Positions 5,046-52,210 of a DNA stretch of 64,000 nt are shown piece by piece. The stretch is from a virus (taxonomy: Duplodnaviria; Heunggongvirae; Uroviricota; Caudoviricetes), in IMG/VR virus record IMGVR_UViG_3300031088_000799. One strand, 5' to 3'. The notes beneath the pieces were generated by a model, which was not told the DNA's origin, searched no databases, and was given only the letters and a program-made list of their open reading frames with translations. Position numbers and translations under genes: made by a program. Position 1 is the stretch's first letter. Every line of letters starts with the position of its first letter.

Positions 5046-5072
5046 AAAAAACCCGCATTAAGCGGGCTTTTT
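5046..5072 (-). terminator. intrinsic terminator downstream of tyrS (cccgcattaagcggg + T-run)
   Basis: Hairpin with flanking A/T runs immediately 3' of tyrS. Confidence 0.7.
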
Positions 5073-6332
5073 AATCAGTCTAAACTCTCGTTTACCTCGT
5101 TGGAATACAGCAAATTTTCCAAATCTAAAATCAGTAATTTCAAGAGCGTTCATTTCATCATCATTGACCACTAACTTATGTCCATTGACTTGAACTGCAC
5201 CACTTTGAATAAACTCTCGACCTTGACGCTTAGATTTAGCAAGTCCAGTAGCGACCAGCAAATCCAACACGTTCAATGTTTCGGGGATAACAGCAACCAT
5301 CCCATTTTTTTCAAGATTTACAAAATCATCTTCTTGCAAGCTATCAAAGTTGTTGTCAAACAACGCTTTGATATTACGCAATACAGAGTCCAATGCTGCT
5401 TGACCATGTACAATCAATGTCAATTCTTCTGCCAAAATCTGTTGAGCCAGTGGTTTAGTGCGTTCCTTATCAGCTTCAAGGATAGCTTCAATTTCTTCAA
5501 TAGACTTAAAAGAAAGCATTTTGAAGAACTTTGGAATATCAGCATCAGCCACTTTCAACCAAAATTGGAAGAAATCAAAAGGACTGGTCATCGCTGATGA
5601 AAGCCACACAGCACCACTTTCACTTTTACCAAACTTAGTACCATCAGCCTTAGTCAGCAAAGGAATAGTCAAACCAGTAGCTACAACATCATTCCCTTCT
5701 TTTCGGTGAATAAGGTCAATACCAGCAGTAATATTACCCCACTGATCACTACCACCCAATTGAAGACGGCAGTTCTTTTCTTTCAGCAAATGATGGAAAT
5801 CCATAGACTGCAGAAGCTGGTATGAGAATTCAGTGAAAGAGATACCCTGATCATCACGTTCCAAACGACTACGGACAGAATCTTTACTCATCATTGCATT
5901 TACAGAGAAATGTTTGCCGACATCACGAAGGAAATCAATGATAGACAAGTTAACAGTCCAATCATGGTTATCCACAAGTTCAACATCACCAAGAATACTT
6001 TGAATTTGAGCTGCAATACCTGCTTTAAAACGATTTACAGTGGCAGCATCATTCAATGTGCGTTCTTGTGCTTTAAAGCTAGGATCACCAATCATACCTG
6101 TTGCACCACCAATCAGTGGGAATACAGTATGACCAGCACGCTTAAATCGAAGCATGGTAATCAAAGGCAACAGGCTACCCACATGCAGAGACTCTGCTGT
6201 TGGGTCAAATCCACAGTATAGGGAAAGACCATTATCCATCAAATCGGAAATTTTTGCCTCATCAGTCATCTGAGAGATAAGGCCACGGTCTTTGAGTTCT
6301 TGAATAAATGCGTTCATAATATTTTTCTCCAC
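5058..6332 (-). CDS. tyrS: tyrosyl-tRNA synthetase, bacterial type with C-terminal S4 domain
   Basis: 424 aa. CGFDPTAESLHVGSL (HIGH region), KFGKS (KMSKS), and a C-terminal S4-like GLAKSKRQGREFIQSGAVQVNG. Close to E. coli TyrRS along its whole length. SD GGAGA sits 8 nt upstream. Confidence 0.92.
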   Translation of the reverse strand: MEKNIMNAFIQELKDRGLISQMTDEAKISDLMDNGLSLYCGFDPTAESLHVGSLLPLITMLRFKRAGHTVFPLIGGATGMIGDPSFKAQERTLNDAATVNRFKAGIAAQIQSILGDVELVDNHDWTVNLSIIDFLRDVGKHFSVNAMMSKDSVRSRLERDDQGISFTEFSYQLLQSMDFHHLLKEKNCRLQLGGSDQWGNITAGIDLIHRKEGNDVVATGLTIPLLTKADGTKFGKSESGAVWLSSAMTSPFDFFQFWLKVADADIPKFFKMLSFKSIEEIEAILEADKERTKPLAQQILAEELTLIVHGQAALDSVLRNIKALFDNNFDSLQEDDFVNLEKNGMVAVIPETLNVLDLLVATGLAKSKRQGREFIQSGAVQVNGHKLVVNDDEMNALEITDFRFGKFAVFQRGKREFRLIKKPA

Positions 6333-6547
6333 GAAAATTTAATTGTGTTTTGATTTGTAGCTGAATTTTAGTTAAATTGATGATGCCTCACAAGAGACAT
6401 TGAGTGGAGAAGGTCAATATCGAACAGTGAAAGATTTTTGAAAGTGGAATGTGGTTGAAGCGTTCATGTGTGTATTCCTTTTAAGACGTTTCGTTTAATA
6501 TGGCCATTCTAACAAAAAATGAAAAAGAAAGCAAGAAAAAATCTTGC

Positions 6548-7141
6548 TTAATTATGTGTAGGTTTCCATTTTTTAACAGGTTTAAGCTCTGTTGCTCTAA
6601 AAATATCATTGCTCCCAACCGTATAATTTTTCATTAAATCAATATTAAAGAGTTGTGAATTATTCTTTAAAGCTTCTGAAACAATGGTGTTATAAATAGT
6701 TTTTTGGTTAACAAATTCATTTTGGCTTACTTTACTTTTCTCAATATGTGTTAAGGTGTCATTGGTTAAATATTTACCCACTTCTTGCATTGCAAATTGA
6801 TAGTCATCAACAGTTTTATTCTTGTTGCCAGACATCATAGAATCTATCTGATTATCAGAAATAGCTAAATGACGTGTATTCATCGTTGGAACAGATTTCA
6901 ACCAATCGGATTCAATGCCATCAATTTTAGGATAGAGATCAATAAAATCTCTTCTTAGAACAATAACTTTTAAATCATTGTAATAATTTTCAAAGTAATT
7001 TTTAATACGATCACTTTTAGAAGACTTCATTAATTGATTGATGTTAAACACCTGTTGAAGCACATCTAAGTCAGAAAGCCCTTTTTGATTCAGTGTATTT
7101 AATTCATTATCTTCGATTTTATCTAACATGAAGAGTACCAT
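6548..7141 (-). CDS. hypothetical protein
   Basis: 197-aa ORF followed by a hairpin aagcaag..cttgctt. Confidence 0.5.
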   Translation of the reverse strand: MVLFMLDKIEDNELNTLNQKGLSDLDVLQQVFNINQLMKSSKSDRIKNYFENYYNDLKVIVLRRDFIDLYPKIDGIESDWLKSVPTMNTRHLAISDNQIDSMMSGNKNKTVDDYQFAMQEVGKYLTNDTLTHIEKSKVSQNEFVNQKTIYNTIVSEALKNNSQLFNIDLMKNYTVGSNDIFRATELKPVKKWKPTHN

Positions 7142-7223
7142 TAGTTAATCTATACATTTTAACATAAAACCAAATAAAAAAAAGAGACTTGATTGTCTCT
7201 TTGTATTCTGAAAAACCTTTTAA

Positions 7224-7619
7224 TCACTGAGTGACAGCCAATTCTACAATTTTATAAAGGTTATCTACACCACATTTTTCCAACATATCAATATCAACAT
7301 CAAAGATTTCAACGACTTCTTTTTCAACGGTTCTTGCCTCATAGATTAAATCATCAAATGAGCAGAAAACAAACACTTTAAAGACATCACTTTCAATGGT
7401 GCCTAAACTTGACCAATGATTTAACGTAGTAATTACACCTGTTTCTTCTTTAAATTCACGAAGCATCGCTTGAATAGGTGTTTCCCCAGTTTCAATTTTG
7501 CCGCCAATACCATTTAATAGTCCACGTTGCCATTCTGGAGTTAGTTTACGAATAAGTAATATTTTACGACGATCAGCACTGAGAGCAATACCCAGCACAT
7601 ATTCTTGTTTATTTGTCAT
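7224..7619 (-). CDS. NUDIX hydrolase (MutT-like)
   Basis: Nudix box GIGGKIETGETPIQAMLREFKEETGV, i.e. GX5EX7REUXEEXGU. Confidence 0.85.
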   Translation of the reverse strand: MTNKQEYVLGIALSADRRKILLIRKLTPEWQRGLLNGIGGKIETGETPIQAMLREFKEETGVITTLNHWSSLGTIESDVFKVFVFCSFDDLIYEARTVEKEVVEIFDVDIDMLEKCGVDNLYKIVELAVTQ

Positions 7620-7760: not shown

Positions 7761-9662
7761 TCAACGATTAAATAATTTAGAAGCTAAGTTTTTTAAAATA
7801 TTTTGTTTTCTTTCTGGTGGTTCTATTTTATTTTTTAAGGTTTCATGTAAATTTGGATAACTTTTCAAATCATGCTTTAAAATATCTACCTGTAATAATT
7901 TAAAATCATCATCGTCATCATAAAACTGGCTATCATTTTTAAAATGGGAAGCACTATGCATTCCATCTTGAGATAAAGTGACACCAATCAATGAACGAAT
8001 ATCAGTAGCATCTTTTGTAAAATCATAAATAAAATATTGATGAGAATCTTCTTTATAACTATTAAAATGAACATCATCTCGTACAATACACCAAGAAGCA
8101 CTACCCAATTTAGAGCTTTGTTCAAAGTTTTCTATCTTTAAAATAACTCGATCAGAATCATTCTGTATTATTTCAGCATTCACATCAATGGCTTTCTGAG
8201 CAATAACTTCATTATTAAAACCACTGTGAATTGAATAAAGTTGTCTCAATGCTTTATTAAAATCATCACTTGTTTTAAAAGAAGCCATTTTTTTACCTAA
8301 ACTTTCCTGCAGTTCACTTGCTGGTATTTTTAGGTCATACAATAATATTATATTTTCAAAAGAACCTTCATTATAAAGATGTCTATATTTATTACTCGCA
8401 ATACTTAATCCATATTGAACAATTTTACGTTCACGAATAAATTCATTCATAGAATCATCTAAGTCTTCAAAGAATAAGTCGTTTATTTCTTCTAACAAGT
8501 TATATTTTTTTGATTTTAAAATAGCTTCATTATCAACATAAGTATTGGCTGCAATAAAGGCTCGTTCACATTCATCAAAATCTTCTTTTAGTTTTTTCAC
8601 AAACATTTTACTAACAGTGGGGCTTTTTCTTAATTTAAAAGCTAATTCTTTACATATCAGATCTTCAAGAAGTGCATTTTTTACTCTTTTAGAAGACACA
8701 TCAACCCAACCACCAGTTGATTTTCCAACAGCAATACTGTGATCTTCAAAAATTTTTAGTTGACTAACATTAGATCCATTAGTCTCAAATTTAATACTTC
8801 TTTTAACATAATTAACAGAATCAAGATCAGTATCATTTCTGGATAATAACATTAACTCTACATCACTAGCCTCTTTCATTTTCTTAGAAAATCTATGAGC
8901 CTGAGAATAAGTGAAGCTTGGTTCATTTTCTATAATGGTATTAATAATTTCTTTTCTTATTTTTTTATAATCTTCAAGATGTTTAAAAATATTACTCTCT
9001 CTGATGAGAGCATTAAGATCATTGTCTTTTTCAAAATATTTTTCCATTAAAGAAACACTTCTTCTAAGGTTAAAGCAACTCTCGGTATATTCTGGAAGAT
9101 CTAATGTATAGGGGACATCTTCGACCAAACGGAAACTGCTTTCAAATGAGATAAGATTGAATTGTATTTTCTCAACTTTCCCAACAATTTCATCAAAAAG
9201 ATTATCTTCTTTGATAGCTTTTAAAACCTTATCGATTTTTTTGAGTTGCGGAGTAATATCAACATCATAATCAGCCGCAACAGAAACCCATCCATTATAG
9301 TTTACTTTTAAGTCTTCAACAATAGATCCCGAACTTAACCTGTTAAGAACTTTAAAAAGATCTTGCATTCTATTACAGTTGTATATCATTTCTCTAACAG
9401 CATCATCATGATCAAAATTTAAATCGTTTTTAATTGACTTAAATTCTTTTATATACTGGTCAAATATATAAGATTGTGCAGTATGTTTGTTATACAAAGA
9501 GTCTAGGTTAGAAAAATAATCATCAAAATTTCTATTAGATTTATAACCAAATTGACTTTTAATCACTTCAAAATGATCATTTAACATAAAGTCTTCGTAA
9601 CTGTCATAATATCTATTTTTATAAGCACGTATCAAATCTTGGATTTCTTCTGGTGTTAGCAT
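7761..9662 (-). CDS. large hypothetical protein; C-terminal ~200 aa paralogous to the ORF at 23302-25503
   Basis: 633 aa. Shared block ...SNKYRHLYN...LYDLKI...LGKK...KLGSASWCIVRDD...QYFIYDF.... Confidence 0.6.
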   Translation of the reverse strand: MLTPEEIQDLIRAYKNRYYDSYEDFMLNDHFEVIKSQFGYKSNRNFDDYFSNLDSLYNKHTAQSYIFDQYIKEFKSIKNDLNFDHDDAVREMIYNCNRMQDLFKVLNRLSSGSIVEDLKVNYNGWVSVAADYDVDITPQLKKIDKVLKAIKEDNLFDEIVGKVEKIQFNLISFESSFRLVEDVPYTLDLPEYTESCFNLRRSVSLMEKYFEKDNDLNALIRESNIFKHLEDYKKIRKEIINTIIENEPSFTYSQAHRFSKKMKEASDVELMLLSRNDTDLDSVNYVKRSIKFETNGSNVSQLKIFEDHSIAVGKSTGGWVDVSSKRVKNALLEDLICKELAFKLRKSPTVSKMFVKKLKEDFDECERAFIAANTYVDNEAILKSKKYNLLEEINDLFFEDLDDSMNEFIRERKIVQYGLSIASNKYRHLYNEGSFENIILLYDLKIPASELQESLGKKMASFKTSDDFNKALRQLYSIHSGFNNEVIAQKAIDVNAEIIQNDSDRVILKIENFEQSSKLGSASWCIVRDDVHFNSYKEDSHQYFIYDFTKDATDIRSLIGVTLSQDGMHSASHFKNDSQFYDDDDDFKLLQVDILKHDLKSYPNLHETLKNKIEPPERKQNILKNLASKLFNR

Positions 9663-9802: not shown

Positions 9803-10699
9803 TTAGCGAATACTTTCATTAGGGTGAGACATAGAGAACAATTTGGTAATGAATTTTGATACAGCCATTTCCATAACAGCATCAAGCCCCACCAAACCAG
9901 CAAGACCACTACTTTTAGTTTTTACTTCTGTACTTACCTGATACAGTTGAGCACCATCTTTGAATGCTTTGAGAATGGCAGTGCGGCTATCACCAATTTC
10001 ATCAACAAGATTTTGTTCAATAACATCCTGTGCCATATAGAAATCACCTTCCATCAGCTTATTCGCATCAATATTAGGACGATATTTCAATACATGGTTT
10101 TTAAACGCAGTGTGAATATCAGCTAGTTTTTGCTTGAAAACAGTTTCTTCAGCTTCATTTGGAGTTTTAGTTGGAACAACAGAACGCTTATTGGTGCCTG
10201 CAGTATATACACGAACATCAACCCCCACCTTATTCAGAACTTCTTCGAAAATAGGAACCTGTGAAACAACACCAATTGAGCCTACAAAAGCAAACGGCTG
10301 AGCAACGATACGGTCACAAGCAGAAGCCATCATATAACCACCACTCGCAGCAATTTCATCAACAAATGCAGTCACATGTAGACCATGAGCACGCAGACGA
10401 CTAATTTGTTGAGCAGCATTCGCATAAGCGGTCACACTACCACCGGGCGTTTTGATAAGCAGGTAAACCGAATCTTTTGGAGACGAATTAAGAATCGTCA
10501 TATCAACATCACGTTCTAGTTTTTCAAAAGCGTTCCCTTTATCGTCAGCATTGAAACGAATGACAAAGACCTTATTCAAATAAACAACATCTTTCGCTTT
10601 TGCTTTCATCTCACGACGAACATCACGACTCTCAATCTTTTTGATGAGTTCACGGTTGAGATCTTTGATTTCAGTTTTAAAACGAATTTCTTTAGACAT
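9803..10699 (-). CDS. S49-family peptidase (SohB/SppA 36K-like) lacking the N-terminal membrane anchor
   Basis: VDEIAASGGYMMASACDRIVAQPFAFVGSIGVV is near-identical in pattern to the E. coli SohB/SppA catalytic-serine region. The ORF starts at MSKEIRF, with an in-frame stop upstream, so there is no TM segment. Confidence 0.85.
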   Translation of the reverse strand: MSKEIRFKTEIKDLNRELIKKIESRDVRREMKAKAKDVVYLNKVFVIRFNADDKGNAFEKLERDVDMTILNSSPKDSVYLLIKTPGGSVTAYANAAQQISRLRAHGLHVTAFVDEIAASGGYMMASACDRIVAQPFAFVGSIGVVSQVPIFEEVLNKVGVDVRVYTAGTNKRSVVPTKTPNEAEETVFKQKLADIHTAFKNHVLKYRPNIDANKLMEGDFYMAQDVIEQNLVDEIGDSRTAILKAFKDGAQLYQVSTEVKTKSSGLAGLVGLDAVMEMAVSKFITKLFSMSHPNESIR

Positions 10700-11139: not shown

Positions 11140-11731
11140 ATGTTAACAACAAAAGAAATTGTCGAAAAAATTAAACAGAAATATGATCATTATGTAGAAG
11201 TCGGTAGTCCTTATGATCTTACGACTCATGCAGATGGTTCCAAAATACGTCTTAACCAAATTGAAAGCATTCGAATGTATAGTGGAATATTTTTAATTAA
11301 TAAATATACTTCAAAAGACTTTTTTAATATTGTATTTGAAAATAATCAAGATCAAGATTTGGAAAATCTTATAAAAATATTTAATATTTATGCTTCGTTC
11401 GATTACCTAATGTTCAGTATTAAACACAATGAATTTTCTGTGAGCAATGGATTCTTTAACGCAAATTTCGTAAAACGATCAAAACCTGTGGAAAAAAAAG
11501 AAGAAGATAGCAATCCTTATAAGACAAATTTGTGTAAAGAAATTGCCTTATCCAATGATGTCAACAACATTAGGCATGAAAGATGTTGGGTTCAGTTATA
11601 AAGAATTGTATGAAAATGTAGTTTATCCACAATTACAATCGATGATTAAAGAATCTATTGATGTAGAAATTACAAATCTTAATGAAGTGAATGAAGATAT
11701 GTTGAATTTAGTCAAAATGGCAAGAATTTAA
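11140..11731 (+). pseudogene. possible frameshifted member of the Ct-motif family (two overlapping frames; second ends ...MLNLVKMARI)
   Basis: ORFs 11140-11601 and 11543-11731 overlap in different frames. The distal one carries the family C-terminal tail. Confidence 0.35.
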
Positions 11732-11764: not shown

Positions 11765-12559
11765 TTAGATTGTTTGCATCATTAAAAGATCTATTTTATT
11801 AGACACATCCGTAGCTGACATATCCATTACAACAGCATAGATTTCAGGATGAAGATTTTTCAGATACATCATAATAAGATTATCAACGAACTCATTAACA
11901 TCAGCATCGGTTAAAACCGGACTCTTTTCAATGATATCATCAACAGTAGTCATTCCAAACAAATTGTCAGGTATTTTATAAAAAGTATTTGTATTGGTAT
12001 CATAATATAGGGAAAGATAATCTATAAATTTTAGAATAGGAAACGTTACAATTTTATTAGTTCTAGTTACTCCAAAATAACGATAAAGTTGGCACCCAGT
12101 CATATATCGATAAGAACCATTAACAGAAGACGTTATTCGACAACCATCCTTATCAAATAAAGACATAGCATAGGCAGTTCTAACAGGTTTTTCAAACATA
12201 TAAATAGAGTTTTTAGATATACTATTAGATAACATTAAAAAACGTGAAAAATGTTTATTTTTGAAAAAAATAGTAAGAGCCTGATTAAGCTCATAAATTT
12301 TTTCTCTGATCGTTTTATTGATTTCGAATAACTTGTTAAATTTGGAAAAAGCAAAAACACTATTAAGGTAAGGGGATGAAAATAATGGTTGATTAGGCGT
12401 CATCTTAAATCGTAAAAAATCCGCTCCATTGTTCGCATTTGCATTGAAAAAATCAACATGACAGCGTACATCTTCTTTGGGATCATCAAATTCCAAAAAA
12501 CTAATTTTTGAATACGATGTATTAAATGCATTTGAGAAAGCGTCTTTAATATTTTCCAT
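11765..12559 (-). CDS. Ct-motif paralog family member (...NKIDLLMMQTI)
   Basis: 264-aa ORF with the family tail. Confidence 0.55.
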   Translation of the reverse strand: MENIKDAFSNAFNTSYSKISFLEFDDPKEDVRCHVDFFNANANNGADFLRFKMTPNQPLFSSPYLNSVFAFSKFNKLFEINKTIREKIYELNQALTIFFKNKHFSRFLMLSNSISKNSIYMFEKPVRTAYAMSLFDKDGCRITSSVNGSYRYMTGCQLYRYFGVTRTNKIVTFPILKFIDYLSLYYDTNTNTFYKIPDNLFGMTTVDDIIEKSPVLTDADVNEFVDNLIMMYLKNLHPEIYAVVMDMSATDVSNKIDLLMMQTI

Positions 12560-12593
12560 AGTAAATCCTTAAAAATAATCGGTAATTCTATCA

Positions 12594-12866
12594 TTATATG
12601 AGATGCATTTCAACTAAGTTCATAATTTCATCATAATCTGAACATGAATCAAAAATACTGTCTACTAATGGTCTATTTTTCAAAAGTGCATCAATGTAAT
12701 GAAAGAATATCTCATTACCGCTTTTTGAAAAATGATCAAATCTGATCACTAACTATATATGTGAAAAATACCCATTAAATATTCGAGCAACAGCATTAAC
12801 CAATCCAACTTCAACATCAGTTAGGTTAATAACATCACCACGTTGTGAATATAAAGTTGTTGTCAT
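12594..12866 (-). pseudogene. remnant ORF: 35 codons, in-frame TAG, then the 3' end of a Ct-motif family gene (...DYDEIMNLVEMHLI). Interrupted by a solo IS right-end copy.
   Basis: One continuous frame 12866->12594 with a TAG at 12753-12755. Downstream codons are encoded by the IS right-end sequence and then a family C-terminus. Confidence 0.45.
12715..12756 (-). repeat. solo copy of the IS607-like right end (42-nt exact match to 60659-60700)
   Basis: ttaccgctttttgaaaaatgatcaaatctgatcactaactat is the reverse complement of the element's right end. It contains the TGATCA-N4-TGATCA hairpin. Confidence 0.8.
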
Positions 12867-12883
12867 GAGTTAGTGACTCCTAT

Positions 12884-13807
12884 TCAGTAAAGCAACATTT
12901 CAGCAATCTTGAAACGACCAACTAATTCTGCTTTTGGAAGATGAATTAATTGTTTTTTCTCTTTAATTGTTAATTTTTCTGCCCGGCCAATAATATCAAT
13001 AATACATTTTAAAAATTTCTTATCGAATTTTTCAAAGAGTTCATCAATAGCGGCATCCAAATCAGCAGGAAACATAGGAATCGCATATTTGAATTTAATT
13101 GAGGATAAAACAGGCAAATTAAATAAAAACCCCGGCTCAAAATCACCCTTTTTATTTTTTAATAACACAATTTCAGCTTTTGACGGAGAAAACGTAAAAG
13201 ATGCTTGTCTTCGAGCGTTTTCTGCTTTTGACATATTACCATAAAAAGATTTGCAAAGTCGTTGTTCTTTTGTATCTTTAAACGTTTTACTTTTAACAAA
13301 AAAATCTTTTAACTGTTGAGGTTGTTTAAGTTTTTCAAAATGATCAAAGAATTCAAATTCACTGGTTGATTGAATATACCTATCAATAACTTTTTCAAGA
13401 ATATGATAAGGGAAAGCTCTACCATTAATCATTTGCTCAAATAATGTCAAAATAATTTTACTTTTATCAATCTTGTCGTTAACAATAGAATAAACGGGAA
13501 GCCCATCATAAACATTACTATATAAACGAATATACTTGTTATATAGAGAATTCTTTCCTTCTTCAAGAATAATTTTAAAACCATAAGATTGATAACCACT
13601 ATTAAGATCTATTAGATAATCATTAGGGCCATATGCATTAACCAAAATACTTTTAATTTGTTTTATAATTGAGCCATATTCATCCATTATTATCTCTACT
13701 TTTTTGTTATTGATATCATCCTTACATGAATTGTCCAACCTTACAATAGAAGAACTGACTATATCAGATAATGTCATAATTTTATTTGTTGTCATAATTA
13801 GCCTCAA
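12884..13807 (-). CDS. Ct-motif paralog family member (...VGRFKIAEMLLY)
   Basis: 307-aa ORF. 4-bp overlap with the next gene. Confidence 0.5.
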   Translation of the reverse strand: MRLIMTTNKIMTLSDIVSSSIVRLDNSCKDDINNKKVEIIMDEYGSIIKQIKSILVNAYGPNDYLIDLNSGYQSYGFKIILEEGKNSLYNKYIRLYSNVYDGLPVYSIVNDKIDKSKIILTLFEQMINGRAFPYHILEKVIDRYIQSTSEFEFFDHFEKLKQPQQLKDFFVKSKTFKDTKEQRLCKSFYGNMSKAENARRQASFTFSPSKAEIVLLKNKKGDFEPGFLFNLPVLSSIKFKYAIPMFPADLDAAIDELFEKFDKKFLKCIIDIIGRAEKLTIKEKKQLIHLPKAELVGRFKIAEMLLY

Positions 13808-15365: not shown

Positions 15366-15416
15366 AATTAAAATCCTTAAAATAAGGAAAAATTATACCA
15401 TATAATAGAAACTAAA

Positions 15417-16253: not shown

Positions 16254-17564
<1,311 letters not shown>

Positions 17565-17573
17565 CTAATTTAT

Positions 17574-18323: not shown

Positions 18324-18340
18324 CTTAACTTCTCCTATTG

Positions 18341-19102: not shown

Positions 19103-19120
19103 ATTACAACCTCATCAAAT

Positions 19121-43257: not shown

Positions 43258-43304
43258 GCCTAAAATAAATGATTTACACAACGAAACTAACTAGGAGATA
43301 TAAA

Positions 43305-44483
43305 ATGAACGACAAATTAAACGAAGAAAAGAGATACATGCAAGTGGCCAAGGAAATGAATTTGTTCATGTTAGCAGAAAGTGCTGGAGTAGTGTACTGG
43401 AAACCAGAAGGTCTTAAATTGTATGAGAATTTAAAGTCTTTTATCCGTAAACACCATGAAGATGCTGGATACCTTGAAGTTAAAAGTCCATCTATTGTGG
43501 TACCTAATCTATTTGAACAATCTGGACATATGGATAAGTATAAAGACAACATGTTTTTCCTTAACTCATCCGAATCCAGTAACTACGCTTTACGTCCAAT
43601 GAGCTGTCCTAACCATATCCTTATCTATCAATCTGAAAAAAGAAGCTATCGTGAACTTCCACTCCCTATTTTTGAATTTGGTGAAGTATTCCGTAATGAA
43701 GCATCAGGTGCTCTACAAGTTTTATTTAGACAAAGACAATTCTGCCAAGATGATAGCCATGTTTTTGTAAATGAAGAAAATTTAATCAACTCCGTTAACC
43801 AATATATTCAGATGAGCCAAAAGGCATATGAAGAATTGGGGTTTAAAAAGATTAAATATGCAATTGCCCTACGACCAGAAAAACGTTTTGGTGATGATAA
43901 CTTATGGGATAAAGCAGAAGAATCATTAAGAGAAGCCTGCAGAATGAATAATCTTGACTTTGTAGAGAACGAAAATGACGGTGCTTTTTATGGGCCTAAA
44001 CTAGAACTTCAAGTTGAAGATAAACTGGGTAGATCATGGCAGCTCGGTGTTATTCAATTGGATTATGTATTACCAGAACGTTTTGGTCTTGAATACATTG
44101 ACGCTGACAACAAACCTAAGCGTCCTATTATTTTACACCATGCGGTTTTAGGTTCACTTGAAAGAATGATTGGTATTTTGTTAGAATCCTTTGGAAAAGA
44201 AATACCTGATTTCTTACATCCAGTGAAATCAGTTGTTATTCCTGTATCTGAAAAATCTATGAACTATGCACAAGTTGTGCTGTCACATTTAGATAAGAAG
44301 TCATCAAAGTTGGATCAAAGTGCAGATTCATTAGGTAAAAAAATACGCTACTGGAAAGAACGTGGTGTTCCTGAAATTATTGTAGTAGGAGAAGCTGAAC
44401 AACAAAAATATGAGCAAGAAGGCATTATTAGTTTTGTAGTGAATCGTGGAAATGTAAAAGAGGTCAAAGAAATAAAAAAGTAA
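43305..44483 (+). CDS. thrS: threonyl-tRNA synthetase, catalytic + anticodon-binding domains only (N-terminal TGS/editing domains absent)
   Basis: FRNEASGALQVLFRQRQFCQDDSHVFV matches ThrRS motif 2/3. Start MNDKLNE has SD AGGAGA. The protein corresponds to E. coli ThrRS residues ~240-642. Confidence 0.8.
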   Translation: MNDKLNEEKRYMQVAKEMNLFMLAESAGVVYWKPEGLKLYENLKSFIRKHHEDAGYLEVKSPSIVVPNLFEQSGHMDKYKDNMFFLNSSESSNYALRPMSCPNHILIYQSEKRSYRELPLPIFEFGEVFRNEASGALQVLFRQRQFCQDDSHVFVNEENLINSVNQYIQMSQKAYEELGFKKIKYAIALRPEKRFGDDNLWDKAEESLREACRMNNLDFVENENDGAFYGPKLELQVEDKLGRSWQLGVIQLDYVLPERFGLEYIDADNKPKRPIILHHAVLGSLERMIGILLESFGKEIPDFLHPVKSVVIPVSEKSMNYAQVVLSHLDKKSSKLDQSADSLGKKIRYWKERGVPEIIVVGEAEQQKYEQEGIISFVVNRGNVKEVKEIKK

Positions 44484-44492: not shown

Positions 44493-44520
44493 AAAAAGAG
44501 GCTTCGGCCTCTTTCTTATT
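44493..44520 (+). terminator. intrinsic terminator agaggcttcggcctct + T-run
   Basis: GC stem with a tetraloop-like ttcg. Confidence 0.65.
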
Positions 44521-45136
44521 GATAAAACATAATAATAGCTCTTTTTTCATCATCTGTCATTTCATTAACAGGCTTATCAAGAACCTGTTTAAAATAATAA
44601 TGTCTAAAAGCTTCATTAATAATATTGATTTGCTCATTAATATTATTAAATTTTAGATAACTGAATTCAAAGCGAATAATGCCAGCAGGTGTTTTCATTG
44701 CCATATATGGCAATGCAATAGGCCGTGGATTATCAGGTCTGAGAAAAAATACATTACTAAAAAAGAAACTTTTAGTATCTAATGTCAGATTTTCTTTATC
44801 TCTGGTATGTTTTTCAATCAAAATGACATTTTCTAAACAAGCTAAAAATAGTTTACGTGATTGAATATGTTCCGCCATATTCATAACAATATTACTTTCA
44901 TTTTTAGCATTTTTATAAAATTTAAATGTATTTTGAAAAAATAAATCATTTTCATCCAGCATATGCTCATCCATATCAAAAAATGATTCACCAACAATAA
45001 TGAAATTATTTTCAGCTAAAGCATCGTCAAAAGAAATTGTATTTAAATGCCTGTATATTTCACCATCACAATGTGTATAAGTATATTTATTGTTATTTAA
45101 GTTTTCCCTTAAAAAACGTTCAAAATTTTTAATCAT
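44516..45136 (-). CDS. Ct-motif family member, sub-clade (...DDEKRAIIMFYQ)
   Basis: 206 aa. One of three tandem paralogs. Confidence 0.5.
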   Translation of the reverse strand: MIKNFERFLRENLNNNKYTYTHCDGEIYRHLNTISFDDALAENNFIIVGESFFDMDEHMLDENDLFFQNTFKFYKNAKNESNIVMNMAEHIQSRKLFLACLENVILIEKHTRDKENLTLDTKSFFFSNVFFLRPDNPRPIALPYMAMKTPAGIIRFEFSYLKFNNINEQINIINEAFRHYYFKQVLDKPVNEMTDDEKRAIIMFYQ

Positions 45137-45145: not shown

Positions 45146-45808
45146 TCAATAATAATACATCTTAACGATTTGCTTTTCTGATTTAGTAAGCTTATCTGTT
45201 GCACCCTTTTTTTCAATAACTTTTGAATAGTATCTAATAAAAAATTGATTGTCAATATTATTTCTTGCTGTTTCAAAACTATCTTTATCATTTTTGACAA
45301 CAACAAAGCATTCTGGAAACTGTTGAAAAGCTTTAAATTTAAATATTATTTTTTGATATACTTGTTTTTTTAAAGAATCAAAAACATAGACGGGAAATAT
45401 TTCAAATTGTTCAAAATCATAATAACCAAGTAATAAACGATTAGGAATATCAGTATTTATTAGGCGTAAATGATTTAAAATTAATCGGAATGATTGTTTA
45501 GCATAGAGGTTATCAATATGGCCTAAATAGACTTTATTTTTAGATGGTTTTGTAGATAAAAACTTTTTAGAAATTTCAAATGAGCATTCATGCTCAGTAT
45601 CATGTTTAAAATAAAATAAACGACCAATGGGATAATACTGATCAAACCCATCACTCAGTTTTGGAGTTCCATCAGGATTAATTCGTTCTTGGACAATGCT
45701 ATAACCAGCCGCAATATGATACCGATAACAATGATTACTTGTATCATTAAGTAAATAATCATTAAAAAATTGAACGTATGAAAGCAATGAAAGATCACTT
45801 TGTTCCAT
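45146..45808 (-). CDS. Ct-motif family member, sub-clade (...SEKQIVKMYYY)
   Basis: 220 aa. Confidence 0.5.
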   Translation of the reverse strand: MEQSDLSLLSYVQFFNDYLLNDTSNHCYRYHIAAGYSIVQERINPDGTPKLSDGFDQYYPIGRLFYFKHDTEHECSFEISKKFLSTKPSKNKVYLGHIDNLYAKQSFRLILNHLRLINTDIPNRLLLGYYDFEQFEIFPVYVFDSLKKQVYQKIIFKFKAFQQFPECFVVVKNDKDSFETARNNIDNQFFIRYYSKVIEKKGATDKLTKSEKQIVKMYYY

Positions 45809-46491
45809 TAAAAGTAAACCATCTTGATAAGATCTTGTTCCTGCTTGTTAAAAAATTTACCACGCTCAATTGTTTTACGCTCAATAATACCATCATAGAA
45901 GCGTTGTTGAAATTCTTTCTCCATTTCATCCATTGCTATTAAAAATTTATGATCATCATTTAAGATGGTAACAGTAACGTCTGGAAAGCCTTTAATAGCT
46001 TTAAAGGTAATGTTTGCACATTGACTTACAATATGACGAACATAACTGTATCGATAAAAATATGTCACTTTTATTTCTTGTGTTTCAAAGTTTGACACTT
46101 TGTGTTTTCGCTGCATAGCACCCGCAATGTTAAGTAGTTTTAGATGTCTTTTCAATCGACTGAAAAATTCTTTTGCGTGAAAGTCATTCAAATAATCAAA
46201 TTTAAAAGAATCTGTATTTTTTATTAATTGAAATGAAATTTCCTTATCAACTTCATCATGATAAGGGCAGTAGCTACTCAATAGAGCAATACAAACATAT
46301 TCATAATATTGATTATGTTTACCAGTATACACATCAAATGCTGATTTTATAATTTTAGAGCCATTTCTTAAAGGAAAACGAACAACCCCAGAGCTTTGAC
46401 CTTCGTATAAACAATCGGAAGTATTGTATTTAGACGAAAAATATTCTGCAAGCCTATCTCGATTTTTATTGTCACTCTGATAATTATTCAT
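45808..46491 (-). CDS. Ct-motif family member, sub-clade (...QEQDLIKMVYF)
   Basis: 227 aa. Confidence 0.5.
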   Translation of the reverse strand: MNNYQSDNKNRDRLAEYFSSKYNTSDCLYEGQSSGVVRFPLRNGSKIIKSAFDVYTGKHNQYYEYVCIALLSSYCPYHDEVDKEISFQLIKNTDSFKFDYLNDFHAKEFFSRLKRHLKLLNIAGAMQRKHKVSNFETQEIKVTYFYRYSYVRHIVSQCANITFKAIKGFPDVTVTILNDDHKFLIAMDEMEKEFQQRFYDGIIERKTIERGKFFNKQEQDLIKMVYF

Positions 46492-46616: not shown

Positions 46617-47270
46617 TTAGTCTTTCTTACCCATAATTTCAAGGATTCGAAGGAACAAGTTAACAATGTCCATATACAAGATAGCTGCCGAGTCCACAGC
46701 GTTATCAACTGTTTTAGGCAAAGCTGCAGCTTTACCCCAATCATAACCAATATACCCACAGAAAATAGCAGCCACAATCCAATCCATAATAGGCAAGTCC
46801 ATTTTGAAAACAAATACCAAGACCAACTCAGCGATAATAGCAGCCAACAAGCCCCAGAACAAACCAGAAGCAATGCTTTCAAAGAACTTTGGATACGCAA
46901 CCCCCAATGCCATCATAATACAGGTAACAACCGTTGTAACTTGCATTGCATTGATTACAATATCTGGCGAATATTGAGAAGTTACAATATTAATGACCAG
47001 TCCAAAAGGAACTGCAACAAAGTTAAATCCAATAAAACTTACCACTGGATTTTCTGATTTGCTAAACAGGTATAGTCCAAAGAAACAACTTGCAAAATAG
47101 CCAACCAAGAAAACCCACATAGGCACAGCTAAAAGGCTTGATACTGGAATAGTTTTAACCATCATAATATTCATCAAAAAACCATACAACAGGACAGCAC
47201 CAATGATTAAATTATACATTCGAGCAGAAATAGTATTATCTGATGTGTAAGTAGTTCTTGCTGTTTTCAT
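46617..47270 (-). CDS. Bax-inhibitor-1/YccA (TMBIM) family membrane protein
   Basis: 7-TM profile. C-terminal signature GYDWGKAA...AILYMDIVNLFLRILEIMG is typical of the BI-1/YccA family. Confidence 0.75.
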   Translation of the reverse strand: MKTARTTYTSDNTISARMYNLIIGAVLLYGFLMNIMMVKTIPVSSLLAVPMWVFLVGYFASCFFGLYLFSKSENPVVSFIGFNFVAVPFGLVINIVTSQYSPDIVINAMQVTTVVTCIMMALGVAYPKFFESIASGLFWGLLAAIIAELVLVFVFKMDLPIMDWIVAAIFCGYIGYDWGKAAALPKTVDNAVDSAAILYMDIVNLFLRILEIMGKKD

Positions 47271-47339: not shown

Positions 47340-47897
47340 TTAAATACACACCATGCGAACTAAATCTCGCTCAGCTTCTGTCATAGTGCTAATAGGTTTA
47401 ATCAATTCTGCTGGCAATTCTTTAGCGAAAGAACTGGCATAATATTCTAAAATTTCTTGTTCAAATGATGCAATATCAGTATCTTTTGTTTCTAAAAGAG
47501 ACATATAATCATGACCATTGATAATTTCATCAAAATCAAAAGCATAAACTTTTTCAATTTTTCCATATACCGTAACAAAATGATAATCATAAGCTTTATA
47601 ACATTCTTGTCCTGATTGATTGAAAAGTTCATCATATGCTTTAATAAGATGACTCAATTGAGATTTAAAATGAAACTTTTCGGCAAGGTGTAACCCAAAT
47701 TTATGCCAAAGATTATGACGATAATCAAGACTGAAAGCATGAAACTCATTGCCAGTGTCAGAATACGCAATAGTTTGCTGCTGAATGAGGTTGGGTCTTT
47801 CTTTTTTGAAAGTTGATTTCTCAATACCATGAGCAACAAAGAAATCTTTAAGTTGGTCATAAATAATATTGTGTGAAAATGGATGCGTATCAATCAT
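47340..47897 (-). CDS. Ct-motif paralog family member (...MTEAERDLVRMVCI)
   Basis: 185 aa. Confidence 0.5.
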   Translation of the reverse strand: MIDTHPFSHNIIYDQLKDFFVAHGIEKSTFKKERPNLIQQQTIAYSDTGNEFHAFSLDYRHNLWHKFGLHLAEKFHFKSQLSHLIKAYDELFNQSGQECYKAYDYHFVTVYGKIEKVYAFDFDEIINGHDYMSLLETKDTDIASFEQEILEYYASSFAKELPAELIKPISTMTEAERDLVRMVCI

Positions 47898-48757: not shown

Positions 48758-49378
48758 TTAAATTACATACATTAAGAAGACTTGCAACTCGTCAGCATTC
48801 ATCTTAGTAAGAGGTTTACGAAGTTCATGTGGAAGGTCTGCCATATATCTAATATAAACTTGATAAAAAAATTCATTGATAACATCATCATAAGCATTAT
48901 CATCCATGCCATCATATAAGATAATCTCAATTCCGTCATCATTTTCATCAAACGGATCAACTAAACGAACAATGCGAGCAACTTTTAGCAAACCATCCAA
49001 GTCAAAATAAAAATACTCTTCATAGTCATCAAAAGGGTCATTTGTTACATGGAGTATTTTAGCTATATCATGAATTTTTGTTAATACTGGAAATTGTATT
49101 TCACCCTCTATGACAATTTTATGGTTAGCGGAAGCATGAGAAACCAGTAGTTGTTCACAATTAGAAAGTCTCCAAAAAATACTGAAACAATCTACTGAAA
49201 TTTTGCCATAATCACAATAATTATTTTGTGTAGTCAGATCTTCCATAATGGCATCAATAGAATAAGTTGTTTCATTTGTTTTAAAAGTAATCGAAGAAAG
49301 ATAATGACGAATATCATCACGAGTATATTCACTCGAAATCTTGGGATAGTTCTTGTATTGAAAGAAATCAGAACTCAT
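48758..49378 (-). CDS. Ct-motif paralog family member (...MNADELQVFLMYVI)
   Basis: 206 aa. Confidence 0.5.
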   Translation of the reverse strand: MSSDFFQYKNYPKISSEYTRDDIRHYLSSITFKTNETTYSIDAIMEDLTTQNNYCDYGKISVDCFSIFWRLSNCEQLLVSHASANHKIVIEGEIQFPVLTKIHDIAKILHVTNDPFDDYEEYFYFDLDGLLKVARIVRLVDPFDENDDGIEIILYDGMDDNAYDDVINEFFYQVYIRYMADLPHELRKPLTKMNADELQVFLMYVI

Positions 49379-50265
49379 ATTGATTCCATCATCAGTAATG
49401 AGAAATAACGATTACGCATTTCTATATCATCTAAATCAATTTCATTTTTAGTTAACCCATAACGCTTTTTAATCACAGGGATCAGTCGGCTCATAAATTG
49501 ATCTACCATAGATTTTTCTAGTGTTTCCTTACAAACTGGGCGAGACATTGAAATCAAATCTTCATAGCATCGAGCAGCCAGTAAAGTTCGTGTAGTGTAG
49601 ATTTTATCTTCATGAATATCAATGATAAAACTAGCTTGATAATGTTGATCGAAATAAACATTAAAATCAAACATAGGTTTAACCTGATTATCTTTATCAT
49701 AATAAAAATGAATTCTTCCGAAAACTCTTGAATTTACAGGATGTTGATACAATCTGTTTTTCTTATAAGCCTTATTAAAAATTAATCTAGCTATCGTATA
49801 ATCATTACAAATATTCTCTTGAGTGTAAGAAGAATTAAAATAAACATAATTAAAAGGTTTTTTTTCAAAATTATTAGAGAAGTCTGAATGCAACGTTAAC
49901 AAACCTGCCGATTCAAGTTGAACAGCGACTGCAAAATACGCATTCGCCACTTTATCAATAGTATCTACATTGATTTTGAATGCGTTACAAAAATCTTTAT
50001 TAATGGTTGGAAAAGATTTACCATCAAAGTTATCAATTTTAAAAATAATTCTGGATTTATGAATAAAAGCATTAAAATAGTTAGCTTTTAGTGGGCTATC
50101 TAAATGAAAAACAAAATGACCAAACTGACCGTTCACGCCAACCCCTTCATGCGGGAATGAAACTGGAATATAATCTTTTAGACTATTGTAGATATTATGA
50201 GCCACCTGTCGCTCATTTTTAAAAAGGTCATTTTCAACGGACATAAATACTCCAAATTTTTGCAA
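49375..50265 (-). CDS. Ct-motif paralog family member (...MRNRYFSLLMMESI)
   Basis: 296 aa. 4-bp overlap with the downstream gene. Confidence 0.55.
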   Translation of the reverse strand: MQKFGVFMSVENDLFKNERQVAHNIYNSLKDYIPVSFPHEGVGVNGQFGHFVFHLDSPLKANYFNAFIHKSRIIFKIDNFDGKSFPTINKDFCNAFKINVDTIDKVANAYFAVAVQLESAGLLTLHSDFSNNFEKKPFNYVYFNSSYTQENICNDYTIARLIFNKAYKKNRLYQHPVNSRVFGRIHFYYDKDNQVKPMFDFNVYFDQHYQASFIIDIHEDKIYTTRTLLAARCYEDLISMSRPVCKETLEKSMVDQFMSRLIPVIKKRYGLTKNEIDLDDIEMRNRYFSLLMMESI

Positions 50266-50293
50266 TTATATCAAATCGAGAAACGATTGGCAA

Positions 50294-50326
50294 GAAAAAA
50301 GCCTCCTGAGAGGCTTTATGTTTTAC
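50294..50326 (-). terminator. intrinsic terminator 3' of ligA (gcctcctgagaggc)
   Basis: Hairpin. T-run on the minus strand. Confidence 0.6.
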
Positions 50327-50335
50327 TATTTTTTA

Positions 50336-52210
50336 TTAGGCTGAAATGTATTTTGCAATAAATTCAGCTTCGGTCAAGATTTCAATGTCAATACCTTTCG
50401 CTTTCAAGGCTTGAGCATCAGCGAGTTTACTGCCAGCACTTTCACCATAGACAAGGATTTGGGTGGTTTTACTCGCTTTACTTTGAATTTTAGCACCTTT
50501 TGAAGTAAAGAATGCTTCAATTTCTTTTCGAGAGTAACTAACCATTGTGCCAGTTACAACCACGTTCTTACCTGAGAACGGACTATCCGTATCTACAACT
50601 ATTTGTGACGACAATTCAAGGTTGAACAAAGGACGCATTGTGTTAATCAAATCCAGCTTCTCACGAATACCAGCAGGAATGAGAACGCTGTTAACTTTGC
50701 CATAACCCTTCATAGCAATCAATTTGTCAGCTTCCACTTCATGCAAGGCATCAATATTGAAAACTTTAAGCAACTTTTTAGAGTCGCCTTTACCAAGGCT
50801 TTCGATACCAAATGCGGCAAGGAAACGCCAATCTTCAATTTGGCTTGACTTACTGAGTTCAAGAGCAGCGACCAAATTAGGACTTTCACCTTTACCAAAA
50901 CCAGCATTCAAGAAATCTTGCTCTTTCATTGCGTAAATTTTTTCCAAAGAGTCAAATCCCGCTTCAACCAACTTAGTAATTGTTTTACCACCAAAACCAT
51001 CATTGTTAGCCAATGTTGCAAAGAAGTGCAACAAAGTCTGAACTACTTGCTCTGAACAACCACTATGGTTTGGGCAGAACAGGAAATGACTGTCCCATTT
51101 CAATTCAGTTGCACAGCAAGGGCAATGAGTCGGAACGACATATTCTGCTGGTGTAATCACTTTTTCAATTTTTGGAATAACTTCACCACTACGGATAATT
51201 TCAATAACTGCACCCGGACCAATTTTGTTAGTTCGAACGTTATTCATATGGTGAGCAGTCACATTACTAATCGTTGCACCCGAGACAAGCACTGGCGAAA
51301 GAGCCAACACAGGCGTTACAGTACCAGTTCGACCAACTTGAAGTTTAACATCAAGCACGGTAGTTTGTGCAGTTTCACCACGTTCTTTAAATGCACACTG
51401 CCATTTGTTATGATGGTTATTATAACCCATGTATTCTTTGATTTCTGGAACAACAGACTCAATTACAAACCCATCAATCAGATAAGGAATTTTCGAACGC
51501 AAATCATTGTTGATTTGTTCAAGGTTATCAAGAATGTCAATTGCTGTGCCGACATAAGCTTCCAAAGTGGTATAAGGCACAAAGTGAATAGCACCGTCAT
51601 CCAAAGCCTTCTGAGTTTCAGCACGAGTGTCTTCCTGAGACAATACGCTACTCATCATGTTACGCGGATGCGGGAAAATAGCCGCAAGATTTTCTGAGAA
51701 ATAATCCTTTTCAACTACAAGTTCACCACGACCTACTGCATTATCCTTACGAATAACACCTTTGTCGAAAATGTAAGTAATGTCGTTACCACGCAGACCA
51801 TCACCACGAGTAGCCAGCTTATCAAATTCATAAGAACCTGCAAAACCATCAAGTTTACAAGTTACTTTGTATTTTGCTTGAATATGAAGATCGTGTGCAA
51901 CATCTTCTACACGCTTAAACCATTTAGCCAATTTTTCTTTGGTATAGAATTTTTCAGTAGACAGCATAGGCGAAGAGTGAGAGATAGCGTTTTCACCAAC
52001 TTCTTCTTTATCAATGTCTTCAAACCAACCTGATTCTGGAAACTTCTCACGGAAATCTTCAACAATGGCATCATAACTTTCGTCTTCAATAGGATCTAGA
52101 CCAAATACTTCTGTTTTAGGAAGGGATTTTACATAGCATTTACTGTAGTCATCAAGCAGTGCAATAAATTCTGCTTCGGTTACTGGGTATTTTACGTCAT
52201 TGATATTCAT
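50336..52210 (-). CDS. ligA: NAD-dependent DNA ligase
   Basis: Adenylation motif KLDG. Cys4 zinc finger CPCC...CPNHSGC. HhH region. C-terminal BRCT (GKNVVVTGTM..RKEIEAFF). A TGnTATAAT extended -10 and a GGAG SD lie upstream. Confidence 0.9.
   Translation of the reverse strand: MNINDVKYPVTEAEFIALLDDYSKCYVKSLPKTEVFGLDPIEDESYDAIVEDFREKFPESGWFEDIDKEEVGENAISHSSPMLSTEKFYTKEKLAKWFKRVEDVAHDLHIQAKYKVTCKLDGFAGSYEFDKLATRGDGLRGNDITYIFDKGVIRKDNAVGRGELVVEKDYFSENLAAIFPHPRNMMSSVLSQEDTRAETQKALDDGAIHFVPYTTLEAYVGTAIDILDNLEQINNDLRSKIPYLIDGFVIESVVPEIKEYMGYNNHHNKWQCAFKERGETAQTTVLDVKLQVGRTGTVTPVLALSPVLVSGATISNVTAHHMNNVRTNKIGPGAVIEIIRSGEVIPKIEKVITPAEYVVPTHCPCCATELKWDSHFLFCPNHSGCSEQVVQTLLHFFATLANNDGFGGKTITKLVEAGFDSLEKIYAMKEQDFLNAGFGKGESPNLVAALELSKSSQIEDWRFLAAFGIESLGKGDSKKLLKVFNIDALHEVEADKLIAMKGYGKVNSVLIPAGIREKLDLINTMRPLFNLELSSQIVVDTDSPFSGKNVVVTGTMVSYSRKEIEAFFTSKGAKIQSKASKTTQILVYGESAGSKLADAQALKAKGIDIEILTEAEFIAKYISA

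Follow-up and report, generated by a model that had tools for sequence, protein, structure and literature searches.

The window analyzed in this study, a 64,000-nucleotide (nt) stretch of DNA from the IMG/VR virus record IMGVR_UViG_3300031088_000799 (Caudoviricetes), is likely to be the accessory (nonstructural) arm of an undescribed and uncultured genome of the huge tailed-phage type. A first-pass annotation had singled out positions 5058 to 52210, in which housekeeping genes for translation and replication lie among a crowd of accessory genes, and had proposed a huge-phage or megaplasmid module. The genes that it listed are all present, as shown by Pfam and NCBIfam searches: tyrS, serS, a truncated thrS, two tRNA genes, the NAD-dependent DNA ligase gene ligA, and genes for an S49 peptidase, a NUDIX hydrolase, an SPFH protein, and a BI-1 homolog. 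The GC content is approximately 30% across the whole window, the coding density is 90%, and 80 nonoverlapping open reading frames (ORFs) of at least 60 residues are found. The window is rich in ORFans: none of the 55 remaining ORFs has a credible Pfam match, and just one has a strong PHROG match.

The expression signals of the window are bacterial. A motif resembling a Shine-Dalgarno (SD) sequence precedes 43 of the 80 ORFs (54%), against a background of 4.7%, and the same enrichment is found in related contigs. GC-rich hairpins followed by a T-run, i.e., Rho-independent terminators, are also found, and within the gene arrays, the stop codon of one gene can overlap the start codon of the next by 4 nt. 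The host appears to use SD sites and is probably a proteobacterium that lives in sewage or wastewater.

The tyrosyl-tRNA synthetase (TyrRS) encoded in the window belongs to a lineage that occurs in more than 100 metagenome clusters, with identities of 62 to 99% (all 120 among the matches listed). As judged by sequence comparison, this lineage is absent from bacterial reference genomes and plasmids. The best TyrRS match among the 185,579 species genomes of GTDB, from the Neisseriaceae, is only 51 to 52% identical, and the best match among the plasmids of PLSDB is 49.8% identical. In addition, 20 kb of the window had no megablast match among 50,697 phage records, and an exact look-up of the window TyrRS returned no record. 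The IMG/VR contig Ga0308163_10000035, of 437,043 bp, is syntenic with the window for ligA, thrS, a PolX-like gene, tyrS, and the S49 gene, and a second syntenic contig of 520,353 bp carries an accessory gene of the swarm described below that is 100% identical to its counterpart in the window. This identical gene occurs in JGI sample 3300031414 and ENA assembly ERZ27247390. As contigs, both exceed the 200 kb that marks a huge phage. The neighborhood of tyrS is syntenic and equally rich in ORFans in relatives down to 66% TyrRS identity. One sample that carries the lineage is labeled as a wastewater metagenome, and the lineage appears to be common in metagenomes of this kind. Two contigs with a lineage TyrRS are of megabase size, namely, L088 (JGI Ga0310127_000002; 1,042,066 bp) and the contig bearing P0021 (1,539,155 bp), and in both the gene lies in the same ORFan-rich, tRNA-studded context; the GC content of the L088 region is 24%. 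In a metagenome scan with the TyrRS alignment, the matches listed were mostly from ordinary bacteria, and the megabase contigs were not among them.

The affinity of the TyrRS points to phages. In a neighbor-joining tree of 53 sequences, 200 of 200 bootstrap replicates recover one bipartition that unites the lineage with Rak2-like jumbo phages (GAP32, CBB, XbC2, Kaldavass, and fHe-Yen9-03), apart from 26 bacterial sequences; phylogenetic placement, which the first-pass annotation had named as a check, groups the enzyme with jumbo-phage TyrRSs and not with those of the sampled bacteria. The jumbo-phage TyrRSs are on average 46% identical to those of the lineage, compared with a mean of 40% and a maximum of 44% to the sampled bacteria. 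The genes that flank the corresponding loci in relatives tell a similar story, in that 116 flank ORFs match 60 PHROG families, including T4 RNA ligase 1, polynucleotide kinase, dUTPase, MazG, and nucleoside deoxyribosyltransferase. T4 RNA ligase 1 (Rnl1) is encoded in L006 and L088, an HAD_PNKP protein is encoded to the right of the window, and the phage antidefense gene Acb1 is found in L100. A flank protein of 778 residues is 45% identical to proteins of the Xanthomonas jumbo phages XacN1 and Xoo-sp13, and its sole other match in the phage collection is weak (28%); family phrog_33734 is shared by the lineage and XacN1. Further flank genes encode an R2K ATP-grasp protein, an ADP-ribosylglycohydrolase, a CYTH protein, three DEDDh paralogs, and additional copies of NUDIX and MazG proteins. 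Some records of the phage collection (OR844993, OR846607, OR851397, and similar records marked "UNVERIFIED_ORG") are labeled as Staphylococcus, Enterococcus, Listeria, or Salmonella phages, although their tyrS, thrS, serS, and ligA are of the ordinary bacterial kind. These records have the appearance of host chromosome fragments and inflate the apparent phage matches for housekeeping genes.

Three aminoacyl-tRNA synthetases are encoded in the window. The TyrRS (tyrS, positions 5058 to 6332, minus strand) is of the bacterial type with an S4-like C-terminal domain (Pfam tRNA-synt_1b, E = 2e-75; NCBIfam tyrS, TIGR00234, 379 bits with a cutoff of 114), and its signature motifs are HVGS at residues 50 to 53 and KFGKS at residues 233 to 237. 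The HVGS motif had been noted earlier as a departure from the canonical sequence and, by implication, as a mark of a derived enzyme. The motif is indeed there; however, it is invariant in all 120 lineage homologs among the matches listed, and H-x-G-S/N is present in about half of the 61 chromosomal TyrRSs from GTDB with a readable motif. It is therefore a normal variant, and we reject it as evidence of degeneration. The seryl-tRNA synthetase (SerRS; serS, 16254 to 17558, minus strand; NCBIfam serS, 482 bits with a cutoff of 302) lies inside an array of accessory genes, as had been claimed, and is flush with them on both sides: the downstream gene begins at 16253, directly past the serS stop codon, and on the upstream side, the neighboring gene has its end at 17574, which leaves 15 nt to the serS start codon. 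The threonyl-tRNA synthetase (ThrRS; thrS, 43269 to 44483, plus strand; NCBIfam thrS, TIGR00418, 397 bits with a cutoff of 384) is N-terminally truncated to 404 residues. The match is restricted to positions 161 to 536 of the 565-position model and so comprises only the catalytic and anticodon-binding domains, with neither the TGS domain nor the editing domain present. The zinc-ligand motifs RPMSCP, QDDSH, and HHAVLGS are kept, and the ortholog in the relative L001 is equally short and 81% identical.

Two tRNA genes on the minus strand, tRNA-Lys(UUU) (anticodon ttt, 37464 to 37539) and tRNA-Pro(UGG) (anticodon tgg, 37588 to 37664), were found with ARAGORN and match the Rfam tRNA model (46.8 and 67.5 bits for the pair). 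A cluster of six tRNA genes was found in the 437-kb IMG/VR contig (L103, 16050 to 16916; approximately 259.6 to 260.4 kb of the contig) with the specificities Ser(CGA), Ser(GCU), Tyr(GUA) twice, Ser(UGA), and Ser(AGA); these are tRNAs with a long variable arm, matching the SerRS and TyrRS of the element. Five tRNA genes are scattered in L088, and a tRNA-Thr gene is located elsewhere in relatives. Taken across the relatives, four tRNA-Ser, two tRNA-Tyr, and one tRNA-Thr correspond to the three synthetases (Ser, Tyr, and Thr).

These genes may constitute a translation module. In the window, it would consist of TyrRS, SerRS, the editing-less ThrRS, tRNA-Lys(UUU), and tRNA-Pro(UGG), and elsewhere in genomes of the same type, it would be completed by the four tRNA-Ser, the two tRNA-Tyr, tRNA-Thr, the T4-type RNA ligase 1, and the polynucleotide kinase-phosphatase. 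Such a module could keep phage mRNAs translated when the host stops charging its tRNAs or cleaves them in defense, a role that we model on the repair of tRNA-Lys by T4 after cleavage by PrrC. The isoacceptor cleaved by PrrC is tRNA-Lys(UUU), which is the one encoded in the window.

A swarm of 30 ORFs of 185 to 307 residues occupies 22.2 kb, or 34.7%, of the window, and its members end in a common C-terminal module. Counted from the C terminus, position -7 is Leu, Val, or Ile in 28 of the 30 members, position -4 is Met in 29, and position -1 is Ile in 20. The strict form of this pattern is found in 25 of the 80 window ORFs, against an expectation of 0.24 when the sequences are shuffled. Alignment is confined to roughly the last 25 residues, BLASTP links only two pairs, and none of the 30 members has a Pfam or PHROG family. 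When the last 28 residues were cut from 70 members of the window and its relatives, phmmer divided the bodies into 38 components, and in profile-profile comparison with hhalign, for which the profiles are shallow, 629 of 630 body pairs scored below 20% probability. The profile of the C-terminal module itself scores weakly (16 to 20 bits) on distant members. The residues upstream of the hydrophobic terminal residues are somewhat acidic (19% Asp/Glu versus 13% overall). The first-pass annotation had described approximately 30 family paralogs; their number and presence hold, but a whole-length paralogous family does not, since the bodies show no detectable homology. The swarm should rather read, from these comparisons, as many fast-evolving genes with one common C-terminal tag.

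A moderately confident AlphaFold2 model of the member at 28785 to 29564 (predicted local distance difference test score of 72.7; predicted template modeling score of 0.73) has an α/β body with the module as its terminal helix, and a Foldseek search of the PDB with this model returned nothing below E = 0.5. Sequence searches of the PDB with the swarm family profile, the PolX-like protein, and an ORFan of 422 residues also gave nothing usable. The rapid divergence of the swarm is seen in the 437-kb relative, in which the syntenic counterparts are 24 to 33% identical or undetectable, compared with 66 to 81% for the neighboring enzymes.

The largest group of swarm genes is a codirectional array on the minus strand (11765 to 22881), delimited from the ORF list, the alignment, and the C-terminal statistics, in which serS is embedded among 12 module genes (11765 to 12559, 12884 to 13807, 13804 to 14586, 14583 to 15365, 15417 to 16253, 17574 to 18323, 18341 to 19102, 19121 to 19855, 19867 to 20676, 20718 to 21452, 21462 to 22277, and 22267 to 22881) with several stop/start overlaps of 4 nt. 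Four more module genes, identified by alignment, form a second minus-strand array at 27973 to 31020 (27973 to 28788, 28785 to 29564, 29573 to 30280, and 30280 to 31020). The others, recognized from the alignment and their C-terminal tails, are scattered, with 12 on the minus strand (1014 to 1781, 36557 to 37414, 39113 to 39751, 44516 to 45136, 45146 to 45808, 45808 to 46491, 47340 to 47897, 48758 to 49378, 49375 to 50265, 52295 to 53104, 56159 to 56905, and 61313 to 61966) and two on the plus strand (3147 to 3782 and 42302 to 43060). At 11140 to 11731 on the plus strand, an ORF of 153 residues is followed in another frame by an ORF of 62 residues that ends in the family tail (...LNLVKMARI), and this locus looks like a frameshifted, pseudogenized swarm member.

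The swarm can be pictured as 30 unrelated, or unrecognizably diverged, bodies, each fused to a predicted C-terminal amphipathic helix of the form ...L-L-x-M-x-x-I-COOH. The helix is most likely a common address or docking tag, which could serve either to load the proteins into the capsid for coinjection or to bind one shared partner, and the bodies are probably fast-evolving effectors of host takeover or antidefense.

The ligase gene (ligA, 50336 to 52210, minus strand) encodes all five Pfam domains of a predicted NAD-type DNA ligase, as assigned from domains and motifs: KLDG at residue 119, an OB fold, a four-Cys zinc finger at residues 363 to 385, HhH motifs, and a BRCT domain. The protein is divergent, including in its N-terminal third, and scores below both NCBIfam LigA equivalog cutoffs (318 bits versus 444 for TIGR00575 and 309 bits versus 369). 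It is at most 29% identical to any record in the phage collection and 69% identical to its counterpart in the IMG/VR relative. The PolX-like nucleotidyltransferase (41176 to 42270, plus strand) belongs to the phage family phrog_24943 (E = 1.9e-34), and all of its tblastn matches fall in phage records of 156 kb or more, among them the metagenomic phages of 636 kb and 735 kb. The NUDIX hydrolase gene (7224 to 7619, minus strand; Pfam NUDIX, E = 5e-12) is syntenic beside tyrS in the relatives L002, L006, and L090. Together with MazG-like proteins, these enzymes would service the DNA and sanitize the nucleotide pool while a genome of very large size is being replicated.

The S49 serine peptidase (9803 to 10699, minus strand) is SohB-like (Pfam Peptidase_S49, E = 4e-33, and S49_N; NCBIfam SohB, 216 bits) and has the nucleophile motif ASGGY at residue 118. 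It aligns to positions 63 to 318 of the 345-position SohB model, below the equivalog cutoff of 259 bits, and its N terminus is not hydrophobic (maximum Kyte-Doolittle value of 0.69 in a 19-residue window over the first 100 residues). The absence of a transmembrane anchor that had been noted earlier is thus confirmed, but the suggested link to prohead proteases of the lambda gpC type is not. The ClpP-related head-maturation model scores only 27 bits (cutoff of 120) against 216 bits for SohB, and the neighbors of the gene in all relatives are ORFans, NUDIX, and tyrS rather than portal or capsid genes. The protein also matches phrog_53, which is labeled as a head maturation protease (E = 1.5e-32); in our judgment, this match reflects the common S49 core and is not specific to a role.

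Two more membrane-related genes lie on the minus strand, one for an SPFH/Band 7 protein (31530 to 32435; Pfam Band_7, E = 2e-28) that is HflK-like (NCBIfam hflK, 75 bits, under the cutoff) and one for a protein of the BI-1/YccA family (46617 to 47270; Pfam Bax1-I, E = 1.2e-23). The SPFH protein was considered as kin of the Band 7 protein of XacN1, to which it has no relation beyond the fold family. Together with the soluble SohB-like peptidase, these proteins may be copies of host modulators of membrane proteases, and over the course of a long infection, they would probably modify both FtsH-type quality control and the integrity of the membrane.

Several observations weigh against assigning the window to a huge phage. 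Genes for capsid, terminase, portal, tail, and phage-type replication proteins were not found in the 64-kb window. The 437-kb IMG/VR contig was read in 10-kb steps from 164,937 to 273,753, and no gene of these kinds was found in these 109 kb, nor in approximately 100 kb of flanks from other relatives; the 109-kb stretch holds ORFans, tRNAs, DnaK, NUDIX, DEDDh, and more tagged genes. A local hidden Markov model of gp23 had no match in any of the lineage loci fetched. With the major capsid protein of XacN1 as bait, the best 120 database matches were all XacN1-like, with at least 65% identity and none on a lineage contig, and the best 80 of 279 matches in IMG/VR were likewise all XacN1-like. Since no capsid, terminase, or portal gene occurs in the approximately 170 kb examined, the phage nature of the element is something that we infer. 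IMG/VR includes only one lineage contig out of more than 100. Cell-like extras are present in the lineage, namely, a full DnaK/Hsp70 (844 bits) and DsbA; the dnaK gene (L104, 10629 to 12530; approximately 182.8 to 184.7 kb of the 437-kb contig) adjoins a gene for an ADP-ribosylglycohydrolase and encodes an unusual chaperone for a phage-like element. The contigs of 1,042,066 bp and 1,539,155 bp exceed the largest phage genome that we found in the literature (841 kb), so that they either belong to something other than a phage, are chimeras or integrations, or show the lineage itself to be of another kind. The TyrRS tree was built by neighbor joining from 53 sequences, for which the bacterial sample was picked by similarity to the window, and the roles proposed for the tag and the membrane proteins are ones that we infer.

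Such observations could be accommodated by a giant extrachromosomal element of nonviral origin, i.e., a capsid-less megaplasmid or Borg-like element that gathers duplicates of housekeeping genes together with fast-evolving accessory genes. The lack of virion genes, the size of the megabase contigs, and the near absence of the lineage from IMG/VR would all fit such an element, and an IncQ-type RepC domain protein is encoded next to tyrS in the distant relative L099. However, no gene for a replication initiator, partition, a relaxase, or conjugation is found among the Pfam families of the window or its close relatives, and no plasmid in PLSDB has a close TyrRS (best match of 49.8%), which also counts against the megaplasmid half of the earlier proposal. 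Moreover, many families otherwise found only in phages are present (phrog_24943, phrog_33734, Acb1, and the Rnl1/PNKP pair), and the TyrRS groups with those of jumbo phages. We consider this explanation unlikely. L099 itself (TyrRS 63% identical; contig of 110,729 bp) has no tagged swarm genes in the vicinity of tyrS and instead encodes, along with the RepC domain protein, four ankyrin-repeat proteins, a cellulase, and a Dam-type methyltransferase.

A chromosome segment of an undescribed, fast-evolving bacterium of low GC content, e.g., an intracellular symbiont, was also considered; the synthetase genes, ligA, dnaK, sohB, hflK, and yccA would then be real housekeeping genes, and the swarm would consist of secreted effectors with a C-terminal secretion signal. 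Contigs of 1.0 to 1.5 Mb are within the size range of reduced bacterial genomes, TyrRS and SerRS score above their NCBIfam equivalog cutoffs, DnaK is present, the acidic swarm tail with its hydrophobic end recalls the signals of type IVB effectors, and ankyrin-repeat proteins are encoded in the distant relative. Nevertheless, no GTDB species has a TyrRS with more than 52% identity, despite the frequency of the lineage in metagenomes; approximately 70% of the ORFs have no family; and no ribosomal, metabolic, envelope, or division gene was found in the 64-kb window or in the 109 kb of the 437-kb relative. The copies of essential genes look crippled or atypical (LigA below the cutoffs, ThrRS without the editing domain, and SohB without its anchor), the flanks carry Acb1 and T4-type tRNA repair genes, and the syntenic relative is filed as viral in IMG/VR. 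This makes a symbiont chromosome quite improbable in our view. A giant virus of eukaryotes (Nucleocytoviricota) would recall the genomes of mimivirus and klosneuviruses in its GC content of approximately 30%, its gene swarms, its tRNAs, and related contigs of up to 1.5 Mb; mimivirus-like genomes also typically encode an NAD-dependent ligase, aminoacyl-tRNA synthetases, and Hsp70 and ankyrin proteins such as those of the relatives. Both TyrRS and ThrRS belong to the bacterial type, though, genes are shared with tailed phages, and the gene arrays contain 4-nt overlaps between stop and start codons. Above all, the SD motifs (43 of 80 ORFs versus 4.7%) and intrinsic terminators are those of bacteria; the element is therefore not a eukaryotic giant virus, and we regard this last reading as so remote that it can be set aside. 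The assignment to a huge-phage-type mobile element, which had been the core of the first-pass annotation, is accordingly the one that we prefer to a core chromosome. It agrees with the absence of the lineage from reference genomes, the IMG/VR relative, the TyrRS tree, the phage-type flank genes, and the lack of cellular core genes; membership in a core chromosome is contradicted by the best GTDB TyrRS match of 51 to 52%, the 55 ORFs without a family, and the absence of ribosomal and metabolic genes from every locus examined.

Other features of the window were also observed. Insertion sequence remnants had been reported for positions 5058 to 52210, but none was seen, and the sole transposon-like gene lies beyond this range. 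It is a solitary, intact TnpB-related ORF of 661 residues (58666 to 60651, plus strand; TIGR01766, 42 bits with a cutoff of 32; guided_TnpB, 46 bits, below 100; PHROG transposase, E = 8e-6), which is far longer than a typical TnpB and has no TnpA alongside. Approximately 800 nt of noncoding DNA (57857 to 58665) lie 5' of this ORF. At the third RuvC-like motif, the sequence is SRHMAAAYVIGRR, in which no Asp is evident, and the protein may be nuclease dead or repurposed.

Two large ORFans of 633 residues (7761 to 9662, minus strand) and 733 residues (23302 to 25503, plus strand) share a paralogous C-terminal domain of approximately 300 residues (BLASTP, 38% identity over 312 residues, E = 5e-54) that carries the motif SWCI-R...YF-YDF. 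Neither has a credible match in Pfam, PHROG, or the PDB, and one copy of the pair always adjoins the S49 gene in relatives. Four tandem genes on the plus strand (25616 to 27477) encode paralogous multipass membrane proteins of 145 to 160 residues, which were recognized as a BLASTP cluster and from their translations; their mutual identity is 26 to 33%, and no family could be assigned. Three tandem paralogs of 80 to 96 residues with a Cys-rich C terminus (C-x-C-x-C-H-V...H) are encoded at 1808 to 2622 on the minus strand, and a single copy is found in the 437-kb relative. Three predicted secreted proteins are encoded on the plus strand at 34873 to 35640, 35764 to 36183, and 37818 to 38867. Two of them have the motif AGY-(R/S)-(V/I)-x-x-PLE directly after the signal peptide and weak Ig/PKD-like matches, and the remaining one is a repeat protein rich in Tyr and Pro.

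As huge phages that encode translation genes had been described before, the general picture is not new. What is new is a lineage for which searches of deposited phage records and of GTDB species genomes gave no close relative; no paper on it or on its sample identifiers was found in the literature, and neither the lineage nor its C-terminal motif has been described previously. Because its three synthetases (Tyr, Ser, and Thr) are paired across the lineage with tRNAs for the cognate amino acids, as well as with tRNA-repair enzymes, it is well suited to the question of whether phages evade defenses that target tRNAs by replacing entire charging pathways. The C-terminal module, found on roughly one-third of the genes, could represent a new signal for protein addressing in phages. 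Should the megabase contigs prove to be single genomes of the lineage, the known size limit of bacterial viruses would be raised. In its widest form, which we put forward as a speculation with little likelihood of being correct as a whole, the proposal would be that the lineage comprises bacterial viruses or virus-like elements with genomes of more than 1 Mb, whose accessory arms encode a very large repertoire of unrelated effectors that are addressed by the C-terminal helix to a common destination, e.g., the capsid interior for coinjection.

Among known systems, the Rak2-like jumbo phages (Mimasvirus GAP32 and CBB; Eneladusvirus fHe-Yen9) and XacN1 resemble the lineage in being rich in ORFans and in having scattered tRNAs and a bacterial-type TyrRS; XacN1 also has a Band 7 protein, a NUDIX protein, and many tRNAs. 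However, the TyrRSs of the Rak2-like phages are only 46 to 50% identical to that of the window, and their tyrS adjoins the gene for GroES, which is not the case in the lineage. The genomes of these phages are approximately 350 to 385 kb, whereas the syntenic contigs of the lineage are larger (437 to 520 kb) and the lineage has, in addition, SerRS, the truncated ThrRS, LigA, and DnaK. No counterpart of their gp23-type capsid gene was found in the lineage loci fetched. The huge phages known from metagenomes (200 to 735 kb, e.g., LR756504 and LR756501) share with the lineage a huge, ORFan-rich genome, aminoacyl-tRNA synthetase genes, many tRNAs, and nucleotide enzymes. The ThrRS and PolX-like protein of LR756504 (636 kb) are 41% and 31% identical, respectively, to those of the window, although there is no similarity at the nucleotide level, nor any close protein similarity, and the lineage is not represented in the phage collection searched.

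At the level of the modules, the tRNA-repair pair of T4 (RNA ligase 1 and polynucleotide kinase-phosphatase) has its likeness in the RNA_lig_T4_1 and HAD_PNKP proteins that relatives encode near the corresponding region. Neither repair gene lies inside the window, and the lineage, as predicted from its genes, adds replacement tRNAs and their cognate synthetases to the T4 scheme. The anchorless S49 peptidase differs from E. coli SohB, which is anchored in the membrane, in that an N-terminal segment of approximately 60 residues is missing and the gene is carried by a phage-like element. As for the swarm tag, the C-terminal cargo-loading peptides of encapsulin systems, the capsid-targeting sequence of T4, and the C-terminal signals of Dot/Icm substrates are likewise short conserved terminal segments on otherwise unrelated proteins. 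This likeness is an analogy and does not imply membership; to our knowledge, ...L-L-x-M-x-x-I-COOH matches none of these signals. The capsid-targeting sequence of T4 is N-terminal and is cleaved off, whereas the module of the swarm is C-terminal.

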